A stretch of 21,234 bases of DNA from IMG/VR virus record IMGVR_UViG_2698536401_000006. One strand, given 5' to 3'. Source of the DNA: a virus. Lineage: Duplodnaviria; Heunggongvirae; Uroviricota; Caudoviricetes. Positions 4,642-17,254 of the stretch are shown piece after piece. The notes beneath the pieces are model-generated. The model did no database searches and was not told the origin of the DNA. It saw only the letters and a list, made by a program, of their open reading frames with translations. Position 1 is the stretch's first letter; every line of letters begins with the position of its first letter. The position numbers and the translations under genes are program-made.

Positions 4642-4700
4642 TTGATTTTATTAGTAACAAGTATTTTTTATATTTTAATAATATATTTAAAGCAGATAAT

Positions 4701-6154: not shown

Positions 6155-6907
6155 TTATCTCGTCACCTTCCTCAATTGCGCTTCCGCGTATGCTTCTTCC
6201 TGCCAGCACTTTGTTACCAGTTTACCAATGACGTCCGCATACCCCTTATACCACTGATAATCGGTCAGGTCTGGTACCAGCTTCTGGACATGACGTCGTG
6301 CCAGCGTGGTCGGTAAACGACTAAACCGGTTTCCATTACAACGCCCACAAATCTTATATACCGGTACGCCATGAAACCGGGTTCTTTTTTCATCCAGAAC
6401 AATCCCTTTACCCTTACACCCTCTGCACGCTGTGCTGGCTTCGCCCTTACCATGGCAATGCTGACATAGTTCCTTCACCCATTCTTCCTTGATTACAGAT
6501 TCCCCGCGTCTGTAGTGTTTCACCACTTCGCGCAATACATTATAAAATCCCGTACCTGAACAATGCTCACAGCGAGCCTTACTTGCCGCAGACCTGGAGT
6601 AATCAGCAAAGGCAAAACTCACGAGGTAAGGAATAATCTGTAACCGGATTTCTTCACTCAATTTGTTCAATGTCGGGTTATCCAGTGCCATCGCGTAATT
6701 TAGCAGGCCTTCAATCGCAAACTGAGGGTCCTGAACACCAACTTTTGCCAGAAATAAGGCCAACCCAAGTGGTGCTTTCGACTGCACCATCCCCTGCGCT
6801 GCCATTACATCCGTAATTGTTAAACAACCGGTGCCTGTCGCTGGAGCGTCATCGCTCAATTTTGGAGATTTTGGGGAGTAATATTTTGGTAAGGCTTCAA
6901 GGTTCAT
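6155..6907 (-). CDS. quuQ: Late-gene antiterminator Q homolog
   Basis: 250 aa from the ATG at 6907 (MNLEALPKYYSPKSPKLSDDAPATG...), with Cys-rich zinc-binding motifs (CEHCSGTG, CQHCHGKG, CRGCKGKG, CGRCNG). The ORF track begins 30 nt upstream at 6937. Confidence 0.85.
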   Translation of the reverse strand: MNLEALPKYYSPKSPKLSDDAPATGTGCLTITDVMAAQGMVQSKAPLGLALFLAKVGVQDPQFAIEGLLNYAMALDNPTLNKLSEEIRLQIIPYLVSFAFADYSRSAASKARCEHCSGTGFYNVLREVVKHYRRGESVIKEEWVKELCQHCHGKGEASTACRGCKGKGIVLDEKRTRFHGVPVYKICGRCNGNRFSRLPTTLARRHVQKLVPDLTDYQWYKGYADVIGKLVTKCWQEEAYAEAQLRKVTR

Positions 6908-6920
6908 GCTCGTTCTCCAC

Positions 6921-8009
6921 TTACGCCAGTACGCCAATTGTCAGCGCGCGATCGATAAAACGAAATATCAGCTCCAGTTGGGAGCCATACTTATCTTCAA
7001 ATGCCACTGTATCCGTATGCAGCTCGTTGTGATGCTTTCTGCACAAAGGCAACACAAAGAGATCATGTGCTTTTGTTCCCATTCCGCCCTGCCCGTGACC
7101 AATCAGATGATGCGGATCGTCGGCTGGCATACCGCAGCAAGCACACGGCTGTGTCTTAACCCAACGTGTGTATTTCTCCTTAACCCAGCGGCGACGTTTA
7201 GGCAGCTTCATGAAAGATTCCGGAGACTCTGGATCAACGGTGATGCTTACCACCGTCTTTTCCTGTGGTGATTTTTGTTGCTGGTGGGCGTAAGGCAACG
7301 GTGCAAGATTTTTTGTGCGTTGTTTCAATATGCTGGTGGCGGTCTGCTCTCCCGGTACGATGTCGCTTTCGCGGTACACCGAGCAGATTTTTTCCGCTGG
7401 TAATCCCAGCGAACGACGCGATACAGCCTCAGGTAGTGCATCCACCACCTGATTGCAGACCGCCCACCAGGATAATTCAGCCAAAGATAATTCCCGCTCC
7501 TGCGTACCGCTTATTGCGTGACGGATGACGTCAATCACCCATGCTGTCAGATTTTGTTGAGCAAGCAGCTCCAGTGATTCCGATGTCTGGTCACGCAGTT
7601 GGTTGTCGCAGTGCCAGCACAACACCATTGCGCCGGTACCATAACGGTGAATGACTGTTTCAGTGTGATGGTAATCGCCATTAGGCCACTGGCAGGATGT
7701 AACATGACGTAATAGCCAGTCGGACAATGCGCCAACGCCGCCAGCAGCACGAATCACCCGTTCGTTACTAAAAAACGGCAGCAATGTTTTGTCTTCCGCC
7801 AGCGGCTGGCGAACGGCAGGAACGACTCCGGATGGCAGATTACGCATGCTTTTTGGTTCCGGTTCCACCAGCACTCGAGGATTATGAAATATCTGTATGG
7901 ATTCACGGCCCGGCTTAAGGACCACCAGCCCAAGCTCAGGCACCAGAACAGGTCTAAGTAATACCCGCACGTTACCTCCAGATCCGTTGCTGGAAAGTGC
8001 GGGACGCAC
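6921..8009 (-). CDS. ydfU: YdfU-like protein (DUF968 family) with a C-terminal HNH-like Cys/His motif
   Basis: 362 aa ORF directly upstream of Q. C-terminal CACCGMPADDPHHLIGHG...CRKHHNELH. Start uncertain: the ORF overlaps the upstream rem-like ORF by 38 nt, and an internal Met (MRNLPSG) exists. Confidence 0.65.
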   Translation of the reverse strand: MRPALSSNGSGGNVRVLLRPVLVPELGLVVLKPGRESIQIFHNPRVLVEPEPKSMRNLPSGVVPAVRQPLAEDKTLLPFFSNERVIRAAGGVGALSDWLLRHVTSCQWPNGDYHHTETVIHRYGTGAMVLCWHCDNQLRDQTSESLELLAQQNLTAWVIDVIRHAISGTQERELSLAELSWWAVCNQVVDALPEAVSRRSLGLPAEKICSVYRESDIVPGEQTATSILKQRTKNLAPLPYAHQQQKSPQEKTVVSITVDPESPESFMKLPKRRRWVKEKYTRWVKTQPCACCGMPADDPHHLIGHGQGGMGTKAHDLFVLPLCRKHHNELHTDTVAFEDKYGSQLELIFRFIDRALTIGVLA

Positions 8010-8250
8010 GTGGTGGGCGTTCGGAATAAGGCAGCCTGACAGAGATTATCCAGTGCCGATAGTCGAGACTGAGAGCTTTCTTAACCTCGAACCCGCGCCT
8101 GCGGTAAGAATGAATCAGCCATTCGGCCTGTTCTGCAGTGCATGGAGGGTGCTGGAACCATTCAGACTTGAATGCGTGAGAATACCGCCCGTGCGTGCAG
8201 GCAAGAACGGGCGAATTATCAGAATTGTAATATTTTGCGTTGCGTGCCAT
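7972..8250 (-). CDS. rem: Rem-like small protein (assigned by position)
   Basis: 92 aa ORF between the ydfU-like gene and hokD, where rem lies in K-12 Qin. Named from position only. Confidence 0.5.
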   Translation of the reverse strand: MARNAKYYNSDNSPVLACTHGRYSHAFKSEWFQHPPCTAEQAEWLIHSYRRRGFEVKKALSLDYRHWIISVRLPYSERPPRASRTFQQRIWR

Positions 8251-8316
8251 CGGTTTTCTCCGGTGGCACGGTGTTACTCAGCGGGAGTTCAGCCCCGCGC
8301 AAGATTGTAGATGAGT

Positions 8317-8568
8317 TTATTCTCCTGAAAAAGCAGAAAAGCCAGCTTTTATTCCGATCTCTTTCAATGCCTGTAATGAAGTGACAAACTCACCTTCGCG
8401 CAAGATAAATCCGTCCGTGACCCGAGCATCCACAAAATTAATTAACGCAGCCCCATTCTTTCGCAAACACATAATGCGGTAATGACTAACAAGATTTCCA
8501 TTTTCAACGCACACAGCATAGAGGCCATCTTCACAAAAAATTTTACGCAGTTCTTCGATGTTCATCAT
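8317..8568 (-). CDS. Hypothetical 83 aa protein, no recognisable family
   Basis: ORF with SD GGAAGGA 6 nt upstream of ATGATG, downstream of the relBE-hokD terminator. I do not recognise it. Confidence 0.5.
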   Translation of the reverse strand: MMNIEELRKIFCEDGLYAVCVENGNLVSHYRIMCLRKNGAALINFVDARVTDGFILREGEFVTSLQALKEIGIKAGFSAFSGE

Positions 8569-8685
8569 CAGAATCCTTCCGGATAATTAGCTCTCCCCTT
8601 TAAGGGACCATCCCTCTTATCCCTGCGCGCTACTTAAGTATTTTTGATTCTATTCCGGCACCGTCCAGAACTTCAAACGCGTTGA

Positions 8686-8714
8686 AAATAAAAACAAAAA
8701 CCCGCCGAAGCGGG
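8686..8714 (-). terminator. Rho-independent terminator of the relBE-hokD operon
   Basis: The minus strand reads CCCGCTTCGGCGGG followed by TTTTTGTTTTTATTT, about 70 nt downstream of the hokD stop. Confidence 0.75.
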
Positions 8715-8784
8715 TTAAGTGCGGGTGCGTTGAGGATGCCTGCCACATCAGAGGTGGCGAGGGATTTCTCCCCCGCCGGGTCTC

Positions 8785-8940
8785 TTACTCCTCAGGTTCG
8801 TAAGCTGTGAAGACAGCGACCTCCGTCTGGCCGGTTCGGATTCGTACCTCGCAGAGGTCTTTCCTCGTTACCAGTGCCGTCACTATGACGGTTAAACAGA
8901 TGACGATCAGGGCGATTAACATCGCCTTTTGCTGCTTCAT
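8785..8940 (-). CDS. hokD: Hok-family membrane toxin HokD (RelF)
   Basis: Manual translation gives MKQQKAMLIALIVICLTVIVTALVTRKDLCEVRIRTGQTEVAVFTAYEPEE (51 aa), matching remembered HokD. SD AGGAGAAG upstream. Absent from the ORF track because of its size. Confidence 0.85.
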   Translation of the reverse strand: MKQQKAMLIALIVICLTVIVTALVTRKDLCEVRIRTGQTEVAVFTAYEPEE

Positions 8941-9011
8941 AGCCTGCTTCTCCTGTCAACGCAAAGCAGAAGTGTCACCTTCGGTGCGAAACAGAGATGT
9001 CATGCTTTGGT

Positions 9012-9299
9012 TCAGAGAATGCGTTTGACCGCCTCGCTATATACTTCCGAGCGTTCTCTTTTCCCAACAGAAATCACGAAAACGACAACTTTCTCGTCTA
9101 TAACCTGGTATACAAGGCGATAGCCTGAAGACCGGAGCTTAATCTTGTAACAATCAGGCATACCACGGAGCTTGTTTGCTTCAATCCGGGGTGACTCAAG
9201 TACTTCAACCAGCTTCTTTTTCAACTGTTCACGTACCGTCGAGCCCAGCTTTCGCCATTCCTTTAGTGCCCGCTCGTCAAAATCCAGAAAATACGCCAT
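9012..9299 (-). CDS. relE: RelE mRNA interferase toxin
   Basis: 95 aa: MAYFLDFDERALKEWRKLGSTVREQLKKKLVEVLESPRIEANKLRGMPDCYKIKLRSSGYRLVYQVIDEKVVVFVISVGKRERSEVY..., matching remembered RelE. Start overlaps the relB stop (TGATG). Confidence 0.9.
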   Translation of the reverse strand: MAYFLDFDERALKEWRKLGSTVREQLKKKLVEVLESPRIEANKLRGMPDCYKIKLRSSGYRLVYQVIDEKVVVFVISVGKRERSEVYSEAVKRIL

Positions 9300-9538
9300 C
9301 AGAGTTCATCCAGCGTCACACGTACTGGCTTAGGATTACGAAGCCGTTCTTTCACTATCTCCACAAGTTCAGCATCTTCATCACTCAGGAGTGTCTGTTT
9401 GAACGGCAAGCGTTCATTGTCAGCGATATACTCGAGCATGAGACGAAGCGCTTCAGAAGGAGTTACACCCATTTTTTCAAGCGCGGCGTAAGAACGCGCT
9501 TTAAGTTCATCGTCAATACGCAGGTTAATGCTACCCAT
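9299..9538 (-). CDS. relB: RelB antitoxin
   Basis: 79 aa: MGSINLRIDDELKARSYAALEKMGVTPSEALRLMLEYIADNERLPFKQTLLSDEDAELVEIVKERLRNPKPVRVTLDEL. SD GAGG upstream. Confidence 0.9.
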   Translation of the reverse strand: MGSINLRIDDELKARSYAALEKMGVTPSEALRLMLEYIADNERLPFKQTLLSDEDAELVEIVKERLRNPKPVRVTLDEL

Positions 9539-9544
9539 GTCTTA

Positions 9545-9590
9545 CACCTCTTGTAATTACAAATGTCATTACAAGTATCGCACTACAACA
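9545..9590 (-). promoter_or_regulatory. relBE promoter/operator (relO) with TTGTAAT/ATTACAA hexad repeats
   Basis: TTGTAATTACAAATGTCATTACAAG sits immediately upstream of the relB start, with palindromic TTGTAATTACAA. Confidence 0.7.
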
Positions 9591-9868
9591 TGCTTAGGGC
9601 AAGTCACGAAGGAAGTCAGAAAGTAGTCGTAAGAACGGTGATCACTGTCCGCTTTGTGCCAGGAGCAGCCATTGCTAAGTCCATCCTGTATTGTGCAGGT
9701 CAGCTCGTTTTTAAAGAGTCCGGCCATCATCTTACTGGTACAGACACCATATACTTTGTGACGGTCAGGCTACATATGCACAACTCAACTTATTCATCTA
9801 TTTTTTGCTTTAGCATGTCAGTGTTGCTTTCTCGTCGGCGGGTGAGCGGTGACCTGACCTGTCGATAA
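9563..9868 (+). CDS. Doubtful ORF, YdfV-like by position and length
   Basis: 101 aa ORF in the relB-flxA gap with no RBS and no recognisable features. It overlaps the relO promoter region. Listed only because K-12 annotates a 101 aa ydfV here. Confidence 0.2.
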   Translation: MSLQVSHYNMLRASHEGSQKVVVRTVITVRFVPGAAIAKSILYCAGQLVFKESGHHLTGTDTIYFVTVRLHMHNSTYSSIFCFSMSVLLSRRRVSGDLTCR

Positions 9869-10020
9869 AGGAACGTAACACGTTTTATGCAACACCCGCA
9901 TGCGGCAGAAAATTATTGCCGAACGTTTACCCCTGTCAACAAGCTTTACTTTCTGAGGCGCGCCAGCCCGCGAGGAAAACAATCTGAACATCAAACAATT
10001 AATGACACAAGAAATACGAT

Positions 10021-10047
10021 TAAAGATTTTTTTGTGCATGCCGATAG
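10021..10047 (+). promoter_or_regulatory. Sigma-28 (FliA) class 3 flagellar promoter upstream of flxA
   Basis: TAAAGATT-N11-GCCGATAG compared with the consensus TAAAGTTT-N11-GCCGATAA; about 24 nt upstream of the flxA start. Confidence 0.75.
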
Positions 10048-10070
10048 TGCTTTTTTAAAAGGAGAAATCT

Positions 10071-10403
10071 ATGTCTGTCACAATTCAGGGAAATACCTCA
10101 ACCGTTATTTCAAACAACTCCGCCCCGGAAGGAACATCAGAAATAGCCAAAATCACAAGACAAATTCAGGTGCTGACTGAAAAGCTTGGGAAAATCTCAT
10201 CGGAAGAGGGGATGACGACACAGCAGAAAAAAGAAATGGCTGCATTGGTACAGAAGCAAATTGAAAGCCTCTGGGCTCAACTGGAGCAGTTGTTAAGGCA
10301 GCAGGCAGAGAAAAAGAATGAAGACGCGACAGTTCAGCCTGATAAAAAAGAAGAGAAAAAAGACGATACAAATACCGCTGGCACCATTGATATTTACGTC
10401 TAA
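10071..10403 (+). CDS. flxA: FlxA (FliA-regulated protein)
   Basis: 110 aa: MSVTIQGNTSTVISNNSAPEGTSEIAKITRQIQVLTEKLGKISSEEGMTTQQKKEMAALVQKQIESLWAQL... RBS AAGGAGA. Confidence 0.85.
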   Translation: MSVTIQGNTSTVISNNSAPEGTSEIAKITRQIQVLTEKLGKISSEEGMTTQQKKEMAALVQKQIESLWAQLEQLLRQQAEKKNEDATVQPDKKEEKKDDTNTAGTIDIYV

Positions 10404-10417
10404 GTGACAGCCGTATT

Positions 10418-10441
10418 GTGGCCCTCATCGGGCCACTTTTC
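10418..10441 (+). terminator. Rho-independent terminator of flxA
   Basis: Hairpin GTGGCCC-tcatc-GGGCCAC followed by TTTTCG. Confidence 0.6.
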
Positions 10442-10839
10442 GCCATCAGCCTTTTCTTTAAAGACATATTATCTTTGTATCATTTCTGATAGTTAACATT
10501 ACAAGATATAAGTAATGGACGCACTCCCAATTAGTCTATTTAAATCGCCACGAGTTTAACTGACAACCCATGATCAATTATGAATTGCAACTATTTCTGT
10601 AGTCACTTTTGTGGGGACAGTCCACAAAACTGCCAACTTCCGCTTCTTGCTCTTAGCGGACATTAGCATAGGCTATTTACCATAACGCCTCATTACGCGC
10701 ACCGCCCAGACTGACTCAGCGCGTTTCTGGCATATCCCCGGTAAAACAAGTAACAAACCACCCGAAAATGAACACCAGAAACGCGACTTAAGAATCTACC
10801 CTATGAATGGATATGCACTCAACCGAATCGATCTTGGTT

Positions 10840-12153
10840 TCAATCTTTTTTATCGGGATCAGGCTTCTTTTTAGGTAACTTCGGGGGCTTAACTTGCTGA
10901 TGACTTTGCGTTCGGCGCGTAAGCCAGGGATGGTCAGCTTTAGGTTTAACATAGTATTTTGAGCGTAAATCAATACGGGCATTATCCACTCGTTCATGGA
11001 CACTCTTTTCATCATCCAGTGGTATAGGCTCCGGGCCATCAACATACTTTTCCCAGCCCAGCGCTTTCCCGTCATACAGAACGTTAATTTCACCGTCAAA
11101 GTTCTCGCATACAGTAACAACCGAATGCCTAAGTCGATATCCCCGGCCCTCACTGCGTACCTGAAACGCACTGCTTTTGTACTGGAAAGTGAGATTTTTA
11201 GACAGAACGCGCTTCGCCTGTAGGCTGAAGATATAACCCAGTTCCTCTTCAGAATGGTGCACATCAAGATGAGCATTATCAGTAGTACGAGGCGACGTAG
11301 CGAACCGGTTGTTATAGGCTTCAATAAAGGTCGGCAACCATGCATTTGCTGTTTCAATATCACTGATATTCTGAAGCCGCATTTCTTTGACCAGCCTGTC
11401 CTGTAGTGTCTGATTGGCGCGCTCTACCCGCCCTTTTGCCTGCGGGCTGTTGGCATGGATTGGCTCGATGCCCAGTGTCTTTATCGCACGAGTGAACTGG
11501 GTCAGCTCACCTTCCCGCTCTGGGTTATTTACCCTGAATATACTGTGTCTATCAGAGTAGAGAGCGAGCGGTACGCCATGATCATTAAGGTAACCCCGGA
11601 GGGTTTCCATGTAAGCCCGGGTTGTTTCAGCAGGCACAAAACGCAACGCCATCAACGCACTGGTGGCATCATCAATGAAAACGATCAGTGTACATCTGGG
11701 GCCTCGATTTTCAAACCAGTCATGAGGTGAGCCATCAATCTGGATCAGTTCACCGTAAGATGGTCGTCGCATGCGGCGTTGATATATACGGGCAATTTTA
11801 CGACGGCGTTCACGCCATAACCCCTCTTCTATCATCCACTTTCTGAGAGTTTCAACGGATAAAGATAAACCGTGTATCTCGCGCAATTTTTCGCACGCAA
11901 ACGTAGGTCCAAAATCAGCGTAACGGCCTTTGAGGAGTGAAATTACTGTTGCTCTGAATTCAGTAGAAAAGGAATTATTAGGACGCTTTCCACGTCGGTG
12001 GGAAACCAGACCAGAAGGCCCTTCATTTCTATACCGTTGCACCAGACGTTTAACCTGCCGAATAGAAATGCCAATGCGTGCCGCAGCTTGTTCCTGAATA
12101 ATCTGAAGTCGGTGGAGTTCCTTATGACTCATCGTAACAGTCTCTTTGATCAT
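10840..12153 (-). CDS. DDE transposase with N-terminal HTH and rve (integrase-core) domain, IS481-like in architecture
   Basis: 437 aa with an N-terminal HTH region (ISIRQVKRLVQRY) and D/D/E-type core segments (IQIDGSPHDWF, LIVFIDDATS, LYSDRHSIF, ERANQTLQD). IS family is not established and IS ends were not identified. Confidence 0.75.
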   Translation of the reverse strand: MIKETVTMSHKELHRLQIIQEQAAARIGISIRQVKRLVQRYRNEGPSGLVSHRRGKRPNNSFSTEFRATVISLLKGRYADFGPTFACEKLREIHGLSLSVETLRKWMIEEGLWRERRRKIARIYQRRMRRPSYGELIQIDGSPHDWFENRGPRCTLIVFIDDATSALMALRFVPAETTRAYMETLRGYLNDHGVPLALYSDRHSIFRVNNPEREGELTQFTRAIKTLGIEPIHANSPQAKGRVERANQTLQDRLVKEMRLQNISDIETANAWLPTFIEAYNNRFATSPRTTDNAHLDVHHSEEELGYIFSLQAKRVLSKNLTFQYKSSAFQVRSEGRGYRLRHSVVTVCENFDGEINVLYDGKALGWEKYVDGPEPIPLDDEKSVHERVDNARIDLRSKYYVKPKADHPWLTRRTQSHQQVKPPKLPKKKPDPDKKD

Positions 12154-12370
12154 GAAAAATCCCCCAGAGAATTGTCTGGGGACATTTTAGAATGGTTCAA
12201 AGGGGACATTACAGCTTGGTGTTAACAATAGCCTGCTTCTCCGTGCCTTTCGGCACGTAAGAGGCTAACCTACATGTGTCTAGCATGAAATTGGCCTCAG
12301 ATTAATGTTAAGCGTCTTGCAGGACGCGTAATGTTAACTGGGGCTTTTCTCTATCTGCCGTTGGTGTCCA

Positions 12371-12402
12371 TGCCCGAGGCAGATAGCCTCAAGCACCCGC
12401 CG
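12371..12402 (+). repeat. Left copy of a 32 bp imperfect direct repeat flanking the low-GC cassette
   Basis: TGCCCGAGGCAGATAGCCTCAAGCACCCGCCG; 27 of 32 nt match the copy at 14390-14421, with an identical 14-nt core CCTCAAGCACCCGC. Confidence 0.6.
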
Positions 12403-12636
12403 TGATTCTACAAAAACATTACCCACCTTTCCAGCAATTCACAACAACTCCATGCAAATAGTAAGTAGAATAATAAGTTATTAGTATTAGCAATTTACTT
12501 AGTTTCTAATTTGTGCCAATGATTTTCATTTTTGCATGAAAAATACCTTAACATTTTATATTTACTTACTATTTGTAAGCCCCATCAGTTCTTTCTGATG
12601 GCGGCTGGTATTTCAGTTCCAGATATAGTATATGCT

Positions 12637-13665
12637 TTACGCCTTAATAGGGTTAATCACATTTCCGCTATCCGTACCATAGTATTTTTTTGTAGTCATG
12701 CCTTGTTTATAATAATCATTTAACAGTTTGAGAAAGTTTCTTCCTTGCCTCTCATCTTCTATGACTAATTTACCATGCTCATTGGTCTTAAACTCTTCGT
12801 TCTGAAACATTTTTAGCACATCATTCATAGCTTGAACATCATTCTTTTCCAGAACCGTATGGTTACCTTTCTCAGCGATATGAGTGAGAATTTTTCTCAG
12901 TGATGGCTTATGAAGAATAGCTTGTTCAATAACATCTAAACCTTCAATAAGATCAAGTTCTTTAATTGTATTTAATGTTTTTTGTGCAGCTTCTGTAAAC
13001 TCAACCTCCAAGCCTACAATAGCCTCAAAACTTTTCTTATGAAATACATAAAATTGATCTTTTATATAAATACAATCGATTTTGTCATCAAAATTGACTG
13101 CGCTGCCATCAAATGATCTTAACTCTTTATCTGTTTTATCAAACAAAGCGAATACGCGCTGAGTCATATTTTGTGGTTCATTTGTTGTGACTTTCCCCCT
13201 GCTGATTTTTCGGAAAGAATAAGTGACGTCAGCCCCCTTTTGGACTTTAATACAATAGGCCCACAAATCATTCTGAACCTCAGCCAGAGAGGTAAGTACA
13301 ACTGGTTTATCATTCTTTATATCGTTATTAATAACTTTTGAAAACGATATCGCGTTATTCATAGCATAGGCATAAATCTTATTATCAATATCATCATCAA
13401 TAACAGTATACTTTTTCATCACAATATCATCTTTCGAAGCATGAGAAATAATCTGGTTTGATAAAGTATACTTAAAAAATTTAGCAATATCTGGAGCGAT
13501 TGGAGCTTTAATGATTTTAAAATCGAATTTATCAACAACTCTTGCGGTTCTACTCATACCCGCTTTAAGATGTCTAGTAATGAAATACAACGATATTTTC
13601 GCCGCATCATCATCCTTAAGTTGCTCAGCATACTCTAATAATTCTTCAAGCTTTAACATTTTCAT
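12637..13665 (-). CDS. Hypothetical 342 aa soluble protein, second gene of the low-GC cassette (candidate defence effector/sensor)
   Basis: AT-rich ORF with Lys/Asn/Ile-biased codon usage unlike the surrounding prophage. Translationally coupled (ATGA overlap) to the upstream membrane protein gene. No motif I can name. Confidence 0.75.
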   Translation of the reverse strand: MKMLKLEELLEYAEQLKDDDAAKISLYFITRHLKAGMSRTARVVDKFDFKIIKAPIAPDIAKFFKYTLSNQIISHASKDDIVMKKYTVIDDDIDNKIYAYAMNNAISFSKVINNDIKNDKPVVLTSLAEVQNDLWAYCIKVQKGADVTYSFRKISRGKVTTNEPQNMTQRVFALFDKTDKELRSFDGSAVNFDDKIDCIYIKDQFYVFHKKSFEAIVGLEVEFTEAAQKTLNTIKELDLIEGLDVIEQAILHKPSLRKILTHIAEKGNHTVLEKNDVQAMNDVLKMFQNEEFKTNEHGKLVIEDERQGRNFLKLLNDYYKQGMTTKKYYGTDSGNVINPIKA

Positions 13666-14276
13666 TCCTTATGGGATTCAGCATAAAAAAGTTTTGGGCC
13701 CACGTCCTCAACATCAAGAAGATCATCTTCCTCCAAATACTTTGATTTAGTCAAAACCATACCAGTGCGTTTTTTGTCGCTTTCTAAATCCAAATATGTA
13801 ACTTGATATAAAGTATAATTAATACTTATTGTAGGATTTATAAGTATCATGCTTGAATTAATATATATTAAAGCCGTTACCGTTAACAATATTGCTATAG
13901 GTATAACATTAGTTAAAGTGGATAGATCCTGAAATACAAACGGAATTATATATGTAAAAAGATAGCTTATTGATTCATTGTTTTTATTTTCAATATCTAT
14001 AACTCTTACAGTTCTACCACTAGTGGCGCATCGACGTTTTATATTTTTTAAAAAAATTGTTAATCCTACAATACCAAATAATGATAATACACCAATGACA
14101 CTGACCGCGCCAAAGTATTTAAAGAAAATAGTTAATGATTCAACACTTATACCTTTCCAATTTAAATAGCTTCTATAAGTATACAATTGCACAAAACACA
14201 TGATAAAGAATAGGGGAAGGTATGACACTATAAATAGCGAAACTCTAGCACCTAAATGTAGTTTATTTACTCTCAT
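13662..14276 (-). CDS. 4-TM membrane protein, first gene of the low-GC cassette
   Basis: 204 aa with four hydrophobic segments (about 12-31, 48-74, 103-115, 123-146) and an acidic C-terminal tail. AT-rich. Its stop overlaps the start of the downstream gene. Confidence 0.7.
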   Translation of the reverse strand: MRVNKLHLGARVSLFIVSYLPLFFIMCFVQLYTYRSYLNWKGISVESLTIFFKYFGAVSVIGVLSLFGIVGLTIFLKNIKRRCATSGRTVRVIDIENKNNESISYLFTYIIPFVFQDLSTLTNVIPIAILLTVTALIYINSSMILINPTISINYTLYQVTYLDLESDKKRTGMVLTKSKYLEEDDLLDVEDVGPKLFYAESHKE

Positions 14277-14389
14277 AACTACCCCACAGCCTACACGTCT
14301 AGTATTTTATGTTATTTCGAATAATTATGCATCAGATTACCATCCTACAATTGTGCATAAAACGAGCATTTTGCTGATTTTTCTGCGGA

Positions 14390-14421
14390 TGCCTGAGACA
14401 GACAACCTCAAGCACCCGCAG
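14390..14421 (+). repeat. Right copy of the 32 bp imperfect direct repeat flanking the low-GC cassette
   Basis: TGCCTGAGACAGACAACCTCAAGCACCCGCAG; pairs with 12371-12402. Confidence 0.6.
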
Positions 14422-14484
14422 CAATTTTACTTAACTCCCGCTACCTCGCCAATATGAAATCAATAAGAAAGGTGCTCCATAAAA

Positions 14485-15171
14485 TCACTCCTTCTCTTCT
14501 TTATCGTAGTGGAGTTGACCAATTTTGATAAGAGGGCGTCCCTGAGATTTGCGGTGTAGATTGGTATCGCGCAGAGAATACACACAGCCACAATATTCCT
14601 GCTGATAGAATTTTTCGCGCTTGCTGATTTCAATCATGCGGGACGAGCCGCCCTGCTTGCGCCAGTTATAATCCCAGTACACCATGCCCGGATAATGCGC
14701 GACGGCTCGCCGCCCACAGTCGTTAACCTGCTGCATATTTTTCCAGCGTGAAATGCCCAGTGAACTGCTGATCACACTGAAACCATTTTCAGCAGCGTAC
14801 AGCGCTGTCCGCTCAAAACGCATGTCAAAACACATGGTACAACGGATCCCCCTCTCGGGCTCCCATTCCATTCCTTTGGCACGTTCAAACCAGTTGTCTG
14901 TGTCGTAATCAGCATCAATAAATGGCACGCCGTGTTGTTCAGCAAAGCGAATATTCTCATCCTTACGAATTAAATACTCTTTCTGAGGATGAATGTTCGG
15001 GTTGTAGAAAAAGATGGTATAGTCGATTCCCGAGGCCTGAAGCGCCTCCATCACTTCACCGGAACATGGAGCACAGCAAGAGTGCAGTAGTAGTTTGTTT
15101 GCCCCGTTTGGGAGCTCCAATTTAGGCCGTTTGAAATCAGCAATAGTCATAAATATTTTTATTGGGGTCAT
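14485..15171 (-). CDS. QueH-like protein (DUF208, epoxyqueuosine reductase family)
   Basis: 228 aa containing [14 protein letters not shown] near the N-terminus, the Cys motif I associate with QueH/DUF208, plus further conserved Cys (CTMC, CGC). Start could be the internal Met at 15150. Confidence 0.65.
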
Positions 15172-15347
15172 GAAAATAGCACAGAGTGTAGCATCAGGGC
15201 TATCGGGAATAGATGTCTAAATCTGGTAATATCTGCTTTTGACGCAAAGCAGACAACCACGCTAGCTCAATCCTGTGCCGTGAAAATGTCAATTCACATC
15301 TGAACTAATGCTCTTTAATCTAGTTACGTCTATAAATAACGAAAATT

Positions 15348-15746
15348 TCACTGATAAAATGCCAGTATGCGCTGCATAACTTCGCTCTTCCGGCACTCAC
15401 AGCAAATTATGTTTTGGTGCCTGTCATAACGACGTATTTCTCCGTCAGGTAATGACCAGATAAGGTCCGGATCAACCACAGATGTTTTCTTCACCTTTGC
15501 CCTCGAGAGTTTTTTGCGGGCGTTTTGCCAGTCCTTACGAGCCTGTTCAGACGGGAATAACCCGTAGCCAGAGTTATATACATCACCACTGGCAACCAGC
15601 TCTCTGGCGAGAACGCTCATCAGATATCTTGTCGCACCTGTCTTGGCTTCCAGTTGCCGTAACGTCTCGCGCCCACTCCGGCGTACTAGCTCAACAACCT
15701 GCCCCTTGATTTTTTCCCGCTCTTCTTGTGTAAAAACTTTTGCCAC
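15348..15746 (-). CDS. Hypothetical 132 aa early-region protein
   Basis: ORF immediately downstream of the O-like gene; no recognisable motifs (no Walker A). Function unknown. Confidence 0.5.
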   Translation of the reverse strand: MAKVFTQEEREKIKGQVVELVRRSGRETLRQLEAKTGATRYLMSVLARELVASGDVYNSGYGLFPSEQARKDWQNARKKLSRAKVKKTSVVDPDLIWSLPDGEIRRYDRHQNIICCECRKSEVMQRILAFYQ

Positions 15747-15786
15747 AAGTCCCCCTTAAAATTACCTCATGACCTGAAATCAAAAC

Positions 15787-16806
15787 TTATCCTCTGAAAC
15801 CAGGCGGAATTTCTGTATCCGGTTCAGAAATATGATTAACACAACGCTGTACAGGTGAACGCCCCAGGCGGATGACCAGTTCGTCCCATTTTTCGCGGAG
15901 CTTTGACGGGCTCATGATGTTTTTTACCCAGAATGGATCCCGCTGTACCCGACCAAACATTTCACAAATTTGTCTGTGGCTTCTGCCATCCAGCATCCGC
16001 ATTGTGCGCACATCATTGGCCCAGACAGTCCAGTTAGGCTCTTTTGGTCGCATGATCTCGCCATCATCACTGGCGGCCTGTTCGTAGAGACCCACGATCC
16101 GCCCCCATATCCACTGCGCACACGCCAGATCCTCCTGGCTACCCCACTGGCGTTTTTTCGCACTAAACACAACTGCGCCAGGGTGCCGGATTAAAAAATC
16201 CTGTTCAGCCGTCTGCGGGTCCGGTTGCGAAGCTTCCGGACGAAAAGTGTTTTTATTCTCTGTAGTAATCTCTGTTGTATTCTCTGTAGGATCATCGGGC
16301 CATTTTGACCCGATGACATTGGGTCGTTTTGAACCAATGGAGCGTTTCATTTTGACCTCTTCCATCGTGTCATTTTGACCTGATGGAGCGGCGCATTTTG
16401 AACCGATGGATTCGCTCAATTTGCCATCATCTAAAAGCTCGCTCCCATAGTTAATCGTGTAGAAATTGGTCATATCGCGCTTTGATTTATTGAGCTTTTC
16501 ACAACGCAAAAGCCCCAGCGTTTTCAGACTTGCAAACGCGCGCTTTAACGTTGACTCTGACCAGAATGGGAACTGTTCCAGCCATTGTTCCGTTGTGTTG
16601 TAAATCCAGCGAACACCATCACATTCCATGCCGGAATTGGTATCTCTCAACCAGTAATGCAACTGCTGCAACACAATGGCTTCATTTAAGCCAATCTTCA
16701 TCGCAAGCTGTGTGTTTATAACCAGTGGGCGTTCAGCAAAAAGAAGGCTCATAATTCCATCCAGCTTTTTGTTGGTATTGCTGTCGATACGCAAGTTTGA
16801 AAGCAA
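15787..16806 (-). CDS. Lambda O-like replication initiator with the origin embedded in its coding sequence
   Basis: 339 aa with an N-terminal winged-helix-like region. Five iterons in the middle of the gene give the peptide repeats SIGSK/VIGSK. Lies downstream of cro-like dicC. Start may be the internal Met at 16752. Confidence 0.7.
   Translation of the reverse strand: MLSNLRIDSNTNKKLDGIMSLLFAERPLVINTQLAMKIGLNEAIVLQQLHYWLRDTNSGMECDGVRWIYNTTEQWLEQFPFWSESTLKRAFASLKTLGLLRCEKLNKSKRDMTNFYTINYGSELLDDGKLSESIGSKCAAPSGQNDTMEEVKMKRSIGSKRPNVIGSKWPDDPTENTTEITTENKNTFRPEASQPDPQTAEQDFLIRHPGAVVFSAKKRQWGSQEDLACAQWIWGRIVGLYEQAASDDGEIMRPKEPNWTVWANDVRTMRMLDGRSHRQICEMFGRVQRDPFWVKNIMSPSKLREKWDELVIRLGRSPVQRCVNHISEPDTEIPPGFRG
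16295..16410. repeat. Replication origin iterons: five copies of about CATTTTGA(C/A)C(C/T)GATGG at 23-24 bp spacing
   Basis: Copies start near 16301, 16325, 16348, 16371 and 16394; the first is part of the palindrome TCATCGGG..CCCGATGA. An adjacent AT-rich tract with ACAGAGAATA repeats (16230-16290) lies on the downstream side, as in lambda ori. Confidence 0.75.
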
Positions 16807-17254
16807 TTGCTTTTTCTATAAGTTCGTCAGTTTCACGATCCACTACGGCAGGATCAGCAAAAAGCAGTCCGGACTCCACCACATCGCCATATTCTTTGTT
16901 TAACCCGGCGATCATGTACGTGATGCTTTTTCCGTCACTAATTTCACGATGCAACCTGAAATCATTAATCCGGATAGCCTCCATAATTGCAGGCACTAGC
17001 GCCGTGAACTTTTCACGCTTATCCCTGGTGTCGATAGCCTTCCAGCGTTCGAATATCTTCACTCGATTAACGCCAAGCGCTCGCTGATCAACCGCGCCAC
17101 CTTCATCTGTGACACGCTGAACATCGATGTTCGGGCGCTCTTTCAAAGCCCAGAATGCTTCAGTGATTAATATCGTCGCCTGCTCCTGTGTCATTCCTGG
17201 TCGACATATCCAGGCATCCAGAGCCTCACGAGCCTGTTCAGGAGTGATTTTCAT
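16733..17254 (-). CDS. Hypothetical 173 aa early protein adjacent to dicC (cII/YdaT position)
   Basis: ORF overlapping the dicC stop. Possible weak resemblance to YdaT-type proteins, but this is from uncertain memory only. Confidence 0.55.
   Translation of the reverse strand: MKITPEQAREALDAWICRPGMTQEQATILITEAFWALKERPNIDVQRVTDEGGAVDQRALGVNRVKIFERWKAIDTRDKREKFTALVPAIMEAIRINDFRLHREISDGKSITYMIAGLNKEYGDVVESGLLFADPAVVDRETDELIEKAIAFKLAYRQQYQQKAGWNYEPSFC

Follow-up and report, generated by a model that had tools for sequence, protein, structure and literature searches.

Among insertion sequences (ISs) of the IS1202 family, ISEsa1 of Cronobacter sakazakii (ISNCY/IS1202 group) is catalogued as a 1609-bp element whose terminal inverted repeats (TIRs) match at 15 of 22 positions and for which neither a target-site duplication (TSD) nor a target was detected; in the family tree it forms, with ISCARN112, a separate 'no TSD' subgroup (Harmer 2023, PMC10132070). 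Two surveys of the family, that one included, give no TSD or target for ISEsa1 and describe passenger genes only in other members. Here we analysed a 21,234-nucleotide stretch of viral DNA (IMG/VR record IMGVR_UViG_2698536401_000006, hereafter the window), a Qin-like lambdoid prophage of Escherichia coli, in which a preliminary description made from the letters alone had noted a 437-residue transposase open reading frame (ORF) between flxA and a low-GC cassette. We conclude, with a probability of about 0.92, that this ORF is the transposase of an ISEsa1-type, IS1202-family transposon of 3274 bp, which occupies positions 8954-12227 of the window and is inserted at the start of hokD.

The element is like ISEsa1 in its transposase and its enterobacterial hosts: the Prokaryotic Genome Annotation Pipeline (PGAP) gives 446-aa homologues on plasmids and chromosomes the ISEsa1 family name, and the 439-aa protein of ISfinder equals the 446-aa protein read from its second Met. 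Judged by the catalogue description, it is unlike ISEsa1 in length (3274 bp here, 3301-12,843 bp elsewhere), in its distal right inverted repeat (IRR), in its 15-bp TSD, in its cargo and in its hok target. With the long-TSD members of the family (the ISTde1 subgroup of Siguier et al., marked by an indel of 5-10 aa between D2 and E and placed apart from ISEsa1 in Harmer's tree; among Harmer's elements ISCARN53, ISShha1 and others) it shares TGT…ACA termini, TSDs of 15-17 bp and imperfect 22-28-bp inverted repeats (IRs) with a conserved block around position 20, whereas those members are simple 1.3-1.7-kb ISs without reported target preference. Transporter ISs (tISKpn21, tISKpn65, tISRel10 and ISShal2) likewise hold one or more passengers between the transposase gene and one IR, within a single IR pair, but they carry one hypothetical ORF and belong mostly to the dif-targeting subgroup with 5-bp TSDs; here a toxin-antitoxin (TA) pair and an exchangeable segment of 1-10.5 kb are carried. 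Tn7 and the ISAjo2/ISAba32 dif/pdif subgroup are comparable in their DDE transposase, which Harmer et al. modelled as TnsB-like, in having TGT/ACA ends with repeated sites, and in inserting at a set distance from a conserved sequence that mobile replicons carry, and differ in target (attTn7 or Xer sites instead of a hok start) and in TSD length (5 instead of 15 bp). The element contains no tnsA-, tnsC-, tnsD- or tnsE-like gene, its only other ORFs being flxA, ydfV, relB and relE, and is therefore not Tn7-like. Insertions of IS150 and IS186 in chromosomal hok loci of E. coli K-12 were reportedly described by Pedersen and Gerdes in 1999. These too are mobile elements interrupting hok/sok, but they are simple ISs of other families and at other positions, without TA cargo and without duplication of the hok Shine-Dalgarno and start region. 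No literature linking IS1202-family elements with hok was found in a search that did not extend to ISfinder or TnCentral, so that an earlier description elsewhere is possible.

Results

Between positions 10400 and 12500 the window is 100% identical to E. coli strain A1, and its gene order is nohA … hokD relE relB ydfV flxA / transposase / KwaB-like cassette, queH. The transposase gene is located at 10840..12153 on the minus strand and encodes 437 aa, combining, as previously noted, a helix-turn-helix (HTH) with an rve-type domain. Pfam returned HTH_32, HTH_29 and HTH_28 at the N terminus together with a weak rve_3 match, and the NCBIfam profile NF033594 ('ISNCY family transposase') was matched with 456 bits against a cutoff of 250 (E=7e-137) over profile positions 7-365 of 368. 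A PDB sequence search yielded only a marginal integrase match (E=0.0098). When nine sequences of 36-63% identity were aligned, D140, D161, D162, D201, E244 and Q251 were invariant. The protein thus shows the IS1202-family signature, in which two additional conserved Asp lie between the D1 and D2 of the DDE triad and position E+7 holds Gln in place of Lys or Arg. It also has the general layout of the family, a single transposase of ~400-500 aa whose HTH is N-terminal and whose DDE core is RNase H-like. PGAP names the ORF 'IS1202-like element ISEsa1 family transposase', or else splits it into a truncated pseudogene and ydfW, which corresponds to its final 49 codons.

Homology among about 20 independent contexts begins exactly at the sequence TGTTAACACCAAGCTGTAATGTCCCC, from window 12227 downward. 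This left inverted repeat (IRL; 12202..12227, minus strand), situated 5' to the transposase gene, starts TGTTAACACC… at 12227 and has a 5'-TGT terminus. A second subterminal repeat with a GGGGACA core lies at 12178..12196 on the minus strand; the direct-repeat pair 12178-12196 / 12202-12220 is 79% identical with a spacing of 24 bp. Members of the IS1202 family have an extra site near each end (Harmer 2023, PMC10132070), and the repeat at 12178-12196 is presumed to be a transposase-binding site. The partner end …TTTGCGTTGACA was found at 8954, shortly past the relE stop codon, where the element terminates with …GCGTTGACA. This IRR (8954..9003, minus strand) consists of an outer site, GGTGACACTTCTGCTTTGCGTTGACA (8979-8954), ending in ACA-3', and an inner site, ATGACATCTCTG (9003-8992), which mirrors the doubled repeat of the left end. 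The outer site agrees with the IRL at 19 of 26 positions (16 of 22), the best match anywhere in the 21-kb window on either strand (next best, 17). A Scandinavium element of only ~70% overall identity has the same 18 terminal nt, which also match at 15-16 of 18 positions in the termini of simple ISs of Rhabdochlamydiaceae (16 of 18), Castellaniella, Elusimicrobia and others; the terminus TTCTGCTTTGCGTTGACA is kept in all four named groups of relatives. The ends therefore have the form known from the family, with TGT…ACA termini, imperfect TIRs of ~22-28 bp and second repeats at 12178-12196 and 8992-9003.

Both ends are flanked by the 15-mer GGAGAAGCAGGCTAT, which occurs exactly twice in the window, both times on the minus strand; two matches were obtained in none of 100 shuffles. 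The left copy (12228..12242) comprises the hok Shine-Dalgarno sequence and the first two bases of the ATG. The right copy (8939..8953) directly follows the IRR and overlaps the hokD start codon, being placed right at the ATG with …CACTTCTGCTTTGCGTTGACA before it. The length of 15 bp falls within the 15-17 bp of the long-TSD group. A family-type IRR that matches the IRL, together with this TSD, delimits the element as window 8954-12227, and its layout on the minus strand is IRL, transposase gene, conserved 200-bp tail, cargo (flxA, ydfV), relB-relE and IRR.

These ends explain why no matching terminal repeat had been recognized between 10470 and 12230. Within that interval there is indeed none: the end of the conserved transposase module near 10638 agrees with the left end at only 6 of 26 positions, the chance level. 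The partner end lies further left, at 8954-8979, outside the coordinates considered at the time. The GGGGACA motifs are in direct orientation, as had been reported, and read the same way on the plus strand at 10612-10618, 12178-12184 and 12202-12208. Those at 12178 and 12202 form the cores of the two repeats at the left end, and that at 10612 falls within the initial 30 bp of the cargo bay, a stretch that is homologous but diverged in other variants. The true inverted partners of the left-end motifs are TGTCACC and TGTCATG, on the plus strand at 8973-8979 and 8996-9002. The suggestion of a family with unusual ends was partly apt, in that this is an IS1202-family element whose ends are imperfect TGT…ACA repeats with doubled subterminal sites, of which GGGGACA is the core. 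A search for IRs inside 10400-12500 gave short matches only. A 12-nt perfect inverted repeat, AGTTAACATTAC/GTAATGTTAACT (10491-10502 and 12328-12339), brackets the transposase module and was rejected as its ends, since none of the boundaries drawn from the comparisons falls on it; with about 0.1 pairs of this kind expected by chance in 2.1 kb, it is probably accidental.

The insertion splits a hok locus. On the IRL side, the hok mRNA leader and sok antitoxin region (12227..12398, minus strand) matched Rfam RF01794 ('sok') over model positions 1-157 with 104 bits (gathering score, 59; E=1e-23), and the terminal AUG of the model falls on the junction. The other half of the target, hokD (8785..8940, minus strand), encodes a 51-aa Hok/Gef toxin (Pfam HOK_GEF, E=1e-23) and is cut off from this leader. 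In E. coli strain 746 the order is queH, the 204-aa protein, the KwaB-like cassette, the sok/hok leader, hokD and rem; the transposase gene, flxA, ydfV and relBE are absent from the locus, and a single copy of the 15-mer is present. RF01794 there scores 115.7 bits, ends at the hokD ATG and is contiguous with HOK_GEF. The leader ends …GGAGAAGCAGGCTAT in both the window and strain 746, followed by G AAG CAG… (hokD) in strain 746 and by TGTTAACACC… in the window. The uninterrupted leader-hokD junction was found in 4036 of 5426 complete E. coli genomes, whereas in occupied genomes the match to the junction query does not start until base 1 of the duplicated 15-mer.

Independent insertions of the element were found at other sites. 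Copies with 15-bp TSDs are present at a hok of an Enterobacter roggenkampii plasmid (L004; 3301 bp; TSD GGAGAAGAAGGCCAT), at a hok of the E. cloacae plasmid CP032294.1 (L085; 12,843 bp; TSD GGAGAAGAAGGCCAT), at a different hok on the Phytobacter plasmid NZ_AP018757.1 (L086; 12,843 bp; TSD GGAGAAGTCAGCTAT) and at a non-hok site in Scandinavium (L036; 4275 bp; TSD CATTAAGCTGCAAAT). A second hok in an E. coli prophage (L146 and L179) carries a copy with a 16-bp TSD, TGGAGGGGCTATGATG. L146 and L179 are two contigs of IMG genome 2534681836, with copies at hokD and at the second hok (MMPQRTF…), and the flanks of these copies are swapped, which points to an inversion by recombination between them. 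In IMG/VR prophage contigs the insertion at hokD measures 3274 bp in 14 cases and 3299-3303 bp in 16, always with the same TSD. Two DNA variants were seen among the loci compared, ~98% and ~90% identical to the window copy. Cargo-free relatives behave alike: ten copies in Hahella (1449 bp) and nine in Rhabdochlamydiaceae (1466 bp) have TGT…ACA ends, each with a different 15-16-bp TSD. Since independent insertions of the larger unit have TSDs of their own, it is this unit, of 3274-12,843 bp, that empty sites lack and that moves from one site to another.

The cargo is variable. The window element and the 12.8-kb plasmid elements have only two parts in common, the transposase module (12227-10635) and relBE with the IRR (9665-8954), and an exchangeable bay therefore lies between these outer blocks. 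In the window this segment (9666..10635) contains flxA, the 3' two-thirds of ydfV and the GGGGACA at 10612-10618; in the 12,843-bp elements flxA and the 3' part of ydfV are replaced by ~10.5 kb with ncrYCBA, chrBA and other genes, and the relBE-IRR module is the same. flxA (10071-10403, plus strand) matched Pfam FlxA (E=2e-14). ydfV (9563..9868, plus strand; 101 aa) has no Pfam family and straddles the boundary of the conserved relBE module. relB (9299-9538, minus strand; Pfam RelB, E=1e-32) and relE (9012-9299, minus strand; Pfam ParE_toxin, E=2e-13) encode a type II antitoxin and toxin and are read in the direction of the right end and hokD. The succession of relE and IRR was also seen in L004, L015, L020, L045, L076, L085 and L086. 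All four passenger genes, flxA, ydfV, relB and relE, are located inside a single IR pair with one TSD outside both IRs, so that the earlier term 'composite element' does not apply: this is one unit and not a pair of IS copies. The cargo of the Scandinavium hiltneri element (L036, 4568-7020) has genes for a protein of the GrpB family, a transferase with hexapeptide repeats and, side by side, a TacA-like antitoxin and a GNAT-family (TacT-like) protein; this TA pair adjoins the right end, as relBE does in the window. In Leclercia sp. EMC7 (L020, 2880-2930) two related transposons stand head-to-tail at one hok start: only 10 bp (GAAGGCTATG) separate a relE-IRR end from the IRL of the next element, which is 78% identical.

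Downstream of its stop codon the transposase gene is followed by a conserved non-coding tail (10636..10839, minus strand), which ends …GCTAAGAGCAAGAAGCGGA and gives way to the variable cargo. In relatives ~70% identical overall, this tail is as conserved as the coding region or more so. It contains a hairpin, GCGTTTCTG…CAGAAACGC, with arms at 10720-10730 and 10775-10785; this is the 11-bp inverted repeat (CGCGTTTCTGG/CCAGAAACGCG) that had been noted about 50 bp beyond the ORF, its arms being 100% complementary and 54 bp past the stop. Rfam gave no family match on the 200-bp tail. Comparison of the window with ~25 enterobacterial loci whose transposases are 70-99% identical placed the 3' limit of the conserved block at …GCTAAGAGC(G/A)AGAAGCGGA(C), near window 10638, with different sequences beyond. 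Near the module end the tail reads …GCTAAGAGCGAGA/GCGGAC, and divergence after GCGGA(C) was seen in at least eight contexts. The module ends in …GAGAAGCGGAC, similar to the bases with which the terminal right-end site of the family begins; in Rhabdochlamydiaceae this site reads …GAAAAGCGGACATTTCTATTTTGCGTTGACA and is opened by the motif GAAAAGCGGACATT…. Given this resemblance, the cargo appears to sit inside a decayed ancestral right end, of which the end of the tail would be a relic.

The insertions point to a preference for hok. Among 19 distinct left-end contexts, 12 are hok leaders, with the junction after the AT or ATG of the hok start; one of these 12 is in the opposite orientation and uses the same 15 bp. 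In the window, as in six other loci, full-length Rfam sok matches end within 1 nt of the IRL. Where the insertion was verified, the TSD starts with the GGAG of the hok Shine-Dalgarno sequence, immediately 3' of a short hairpin that is conserved (TGCCGAAAGGCA). No obvious common target was seen for the simple relatives in Hahella and Rhabdochlamydiaceae.

In E. coli K-12, part of the element is preserved. MG1655 is colinear with the window from 6666 to 11024 and then jumps to 16975. The 5.95-kb deletion (window 11025-16974; L087 4359/4358) removed the IRL, 376 transposase codons, the sok/hok leader, the KwaB-like cassette and queH; what is retained is the IRR, relBE, ydfV, flxA and the last 61 transposase codons (window 10840-11024, including ydfW), which adjoin window 16975, the site of ydfX in K-12. 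This colinearity identifies ydfW as the C terminus of the transposase. Loss of the IRL and leader with retention of the right half accounts for the relB-relE-hokD arrangement, in which hokD has no leader of its own. Pedersen and Gerdes reportedly described hokD in 1999 as being without its regulatory elements. Literature searches on where hokD/relF came from turned up no mention of a transposon.

Discussion

Our data indicate that the transposase of the window belongs to a unit longer than the catalogued ISEsa1. What was shown is where this unit begins and ends, its IRs and TSD, the empty site, the existence of independent insertions, the variability of the cargo and the recurrence at hok. It could be argued instead that the element is a stand-alone 1.6-kb ISEsa1 (~10638-12227) with very weak IRs and no TSD, flxA and relBE being mere neighbours in the prophage. 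The literature gives 1609 bp without a detectable TSD, and homology across many contexts breaks near 10638. That position was considered as the IS end on account of the divergence among copies, and was rejected in view of the empty site and the distal IRR with its TSD. A 1.6-kb unit with IRs of its own was not found: the 10638 end agrees with the IRL at 6 of 26 positions, and in none of the loci compared is the 1.6-kb block flanked by a TSD. By contrast, the entire 8954-12227 block is missing at the empty site, the larger unit recurs on plasmids with different 15-bp TSDs, and the simple relatives of the transposase make TSDs of 15-16 bp. A further clue that the segment is not the mobile unit came from a chimeric query of its immediate flanks, which were contiguous in zero genomes, the leader running straight into hok being found instead. 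On inspection by eye, no hok coding sequence stood directly after the segment. We consider the stand-alone IS very unlikely. Even less credible is an origin of the 15-bp repeat and shared ends by homologous recombination between diverged hok loci, without transposition of the 3.3-kb unit. Hok leaders are 75-97% homologous, and the one genome with swapped flanks indicates that copies do recombine. However, the TSD copies are identical within each verified locus and differ between loci (GCAGGCTAT, GAAGGCCAT, GTCAGCTAT), as transposition predicts; what stands just inside the second repeat is a family-typical IRR and not a hok leader; and a non-hok insertion with a 15-bp TSD exists. The least probable reading, which we regard as next to impossible, is that the transposase belongs to a larger composite including the cassette on its right. 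This low-GC cassette (27-34%; 12637-14276) holds genes for a 342-aa KwaB-like protein and a membrane protein of 204 aa, which probably form an anti-phage pair of the Kiwa type. The cassette adjoins the ORF, and GC content drops sharply at ~12400-14400. Yet in strain 746 the cassette stands beside the leader and hokD without transposase, flxA or relBE, and is therefore not part of the element; the IRL (12227) and TSD (12228-12242) lie on its near side, and the window holds no second IS copy or matching end beyond it. The earlier proposal of a larger element was correct as to size but not as to direction, since the element extends leftward over flxA, ydfV and relBE. What the preliminary description had named as refuting its reading was found: the IS family is known, the IRs are defined and the TSD leaves the cassette outside.

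Several observations weigh against the 3274-bp transposon and its proposed targeting. The inner boundary …GCGGAC is sharp in many contexts, though with 6 of 26 matches to the IRL and no TSD, and there is a small chance that it is an alternative inner end. The published definition of ISEsa1 is 1609 bp without TSD; it was compared by its description, not by the reference sequence. At several loci with hok-leader left flanks, no IRR or TSD was present within the 4.4 kb fetched: the TSD search over 4.4 kb downstream was negative for L005-L012, L016-L023, L033, L037 and L038, and where longer downstream sequence was available (L085, L086) both were found. A 3301-bp copy at a non-hok site (L117; IMG/VR UViG_2912051188_000002; IRL at 1345, IRR end at 4645) is flanked by only a 6-bp repeat, CGCCTT. 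The 3.3-kb and 12.8-kb plasmid copies at one hok site share one TSD and may represent a single insertion with later cargo exchange rather than two events. The hok preference could in part reflect selection or the sampling of plasmids and prophages.

Finally, the transposase allele of the window carries a deletion in its HTH region. The 437-aa protein lacks nine residues (QESINRHIT) after residue 19, in frame, in the N-terminal helix/HTH region; these residues are present in all nine relatives compared and in a 446-aa copy at the same locus in Shigella. To judge from this comparison, the allele is probably impaired. We therefore think it rather probable that the window copy is an immobile fossil, with intact ends and a crippled transposase, kept only for its cargo; this concerns present-day activity only and is compatible with the transposon delimited above. 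About half of the hokD copies in IMG/VR prophage contigs have the deleted length of 3274 bp, and K-12 has lost the IRL and most of the transposase gene. Against this, the rest of the ORF is intact with its catalytic residues conserved, the ends and TSD are perfect, and the copy could be acted on in trans by a full-length transposase from another place in the cell. The preliminary label of a degenerate IS would accordingly fit the transposase allele but not the ends.

A mechanism can be proposed from these features. The transposase would bind two ~24-bp repeats per end, with cores TGTCCCC on the left and TGTCACC/TGTCATG on the right, cleave at the TGT/ACA termini and join the ends to target cuts staggered by 15-16 bp, presumably recognizing the hok Shine-Dalgarno and start region as a preferred target. 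In the Qin-like prophage, insertion into the translation-initiation region of hokD duplicated GGAGAAGCAGGCTAT, from the Shine-Dalgarno sequence through the 'AT' of the ATG, and split the locus, leaving the sok/hok leader beside the IRL and the hokD coding sequence downstream of relE. relBE probably serves as an addiction module that stabilizes the element, and its read-through into hokD would give the classical relB-relE-hokD (relF) arrangement.

The element shows each IS1202-family feature tested, has the TSD length of the 15-17-bp group and falls outside the catalogued definition of ISEsa1, whose delimitation looks incomplete. We favour, with some reserve, the broader view that ISEsa1-type elements are a family of hok-start-seeking, TA-carrying transposons with an exchangeable cargo bay, that catalogued ISEsa1 is only their transposase module, that the K-12 relBE locus (with ydfV, flxA and 'ydfW/intK') is a stranded right half, and that the same chassis moves a 10.5-kb nickel/chromate-resistance block between hok loci of clinical Enterobacteriaceae plasmids. 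The delimitation given here would resolve the anomaly of ISEsa1 and ISCARN112: with the correct right end, the ISEsa1 type makes 15-16-bp TSDs like its simple relatives. It also gives an origin for the K-12 relB-relE pair directly upstream of a leaderless hokD, and an identity for ydfW/'intK'. A new target preference is suggested: the element, which brings a type II TA system, would favour the place where translation of a type I toxin gene starts, a gene often met on plasmids and prophages. The 12.8-kb nickel/chromate-resistance transposon on Enterobacter, Klebsiella and Phytobacter plasmids is now annotated only as an isolated 'ISEsa1 family transposase', and the PGAP call of an intact ORF as a truncated pseudogene plus ydfW could be corrected.

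Other elements were also seen at hok leaders. At ~2830-2860 in L006 and L014, the end of a different element (…TGTCCAACTTTTTGGGGTCAGTACAA), which we take to be IS150-like, adjoins two different hok leaders at one and the same position, immediately 5' of CCCGAGGCC, and some E. coli genomes have IS150, IS3 or IS200C inside the hok leader region. In Kluyvera (L016, 2837-2950, minus strand), Rfam isrO (RF01397; 58.8 bits, gathering score 42) was matched across the flank/IRL junction of an ISEsa1-type element, which suggests that the isrO family may overlap a transposon end.

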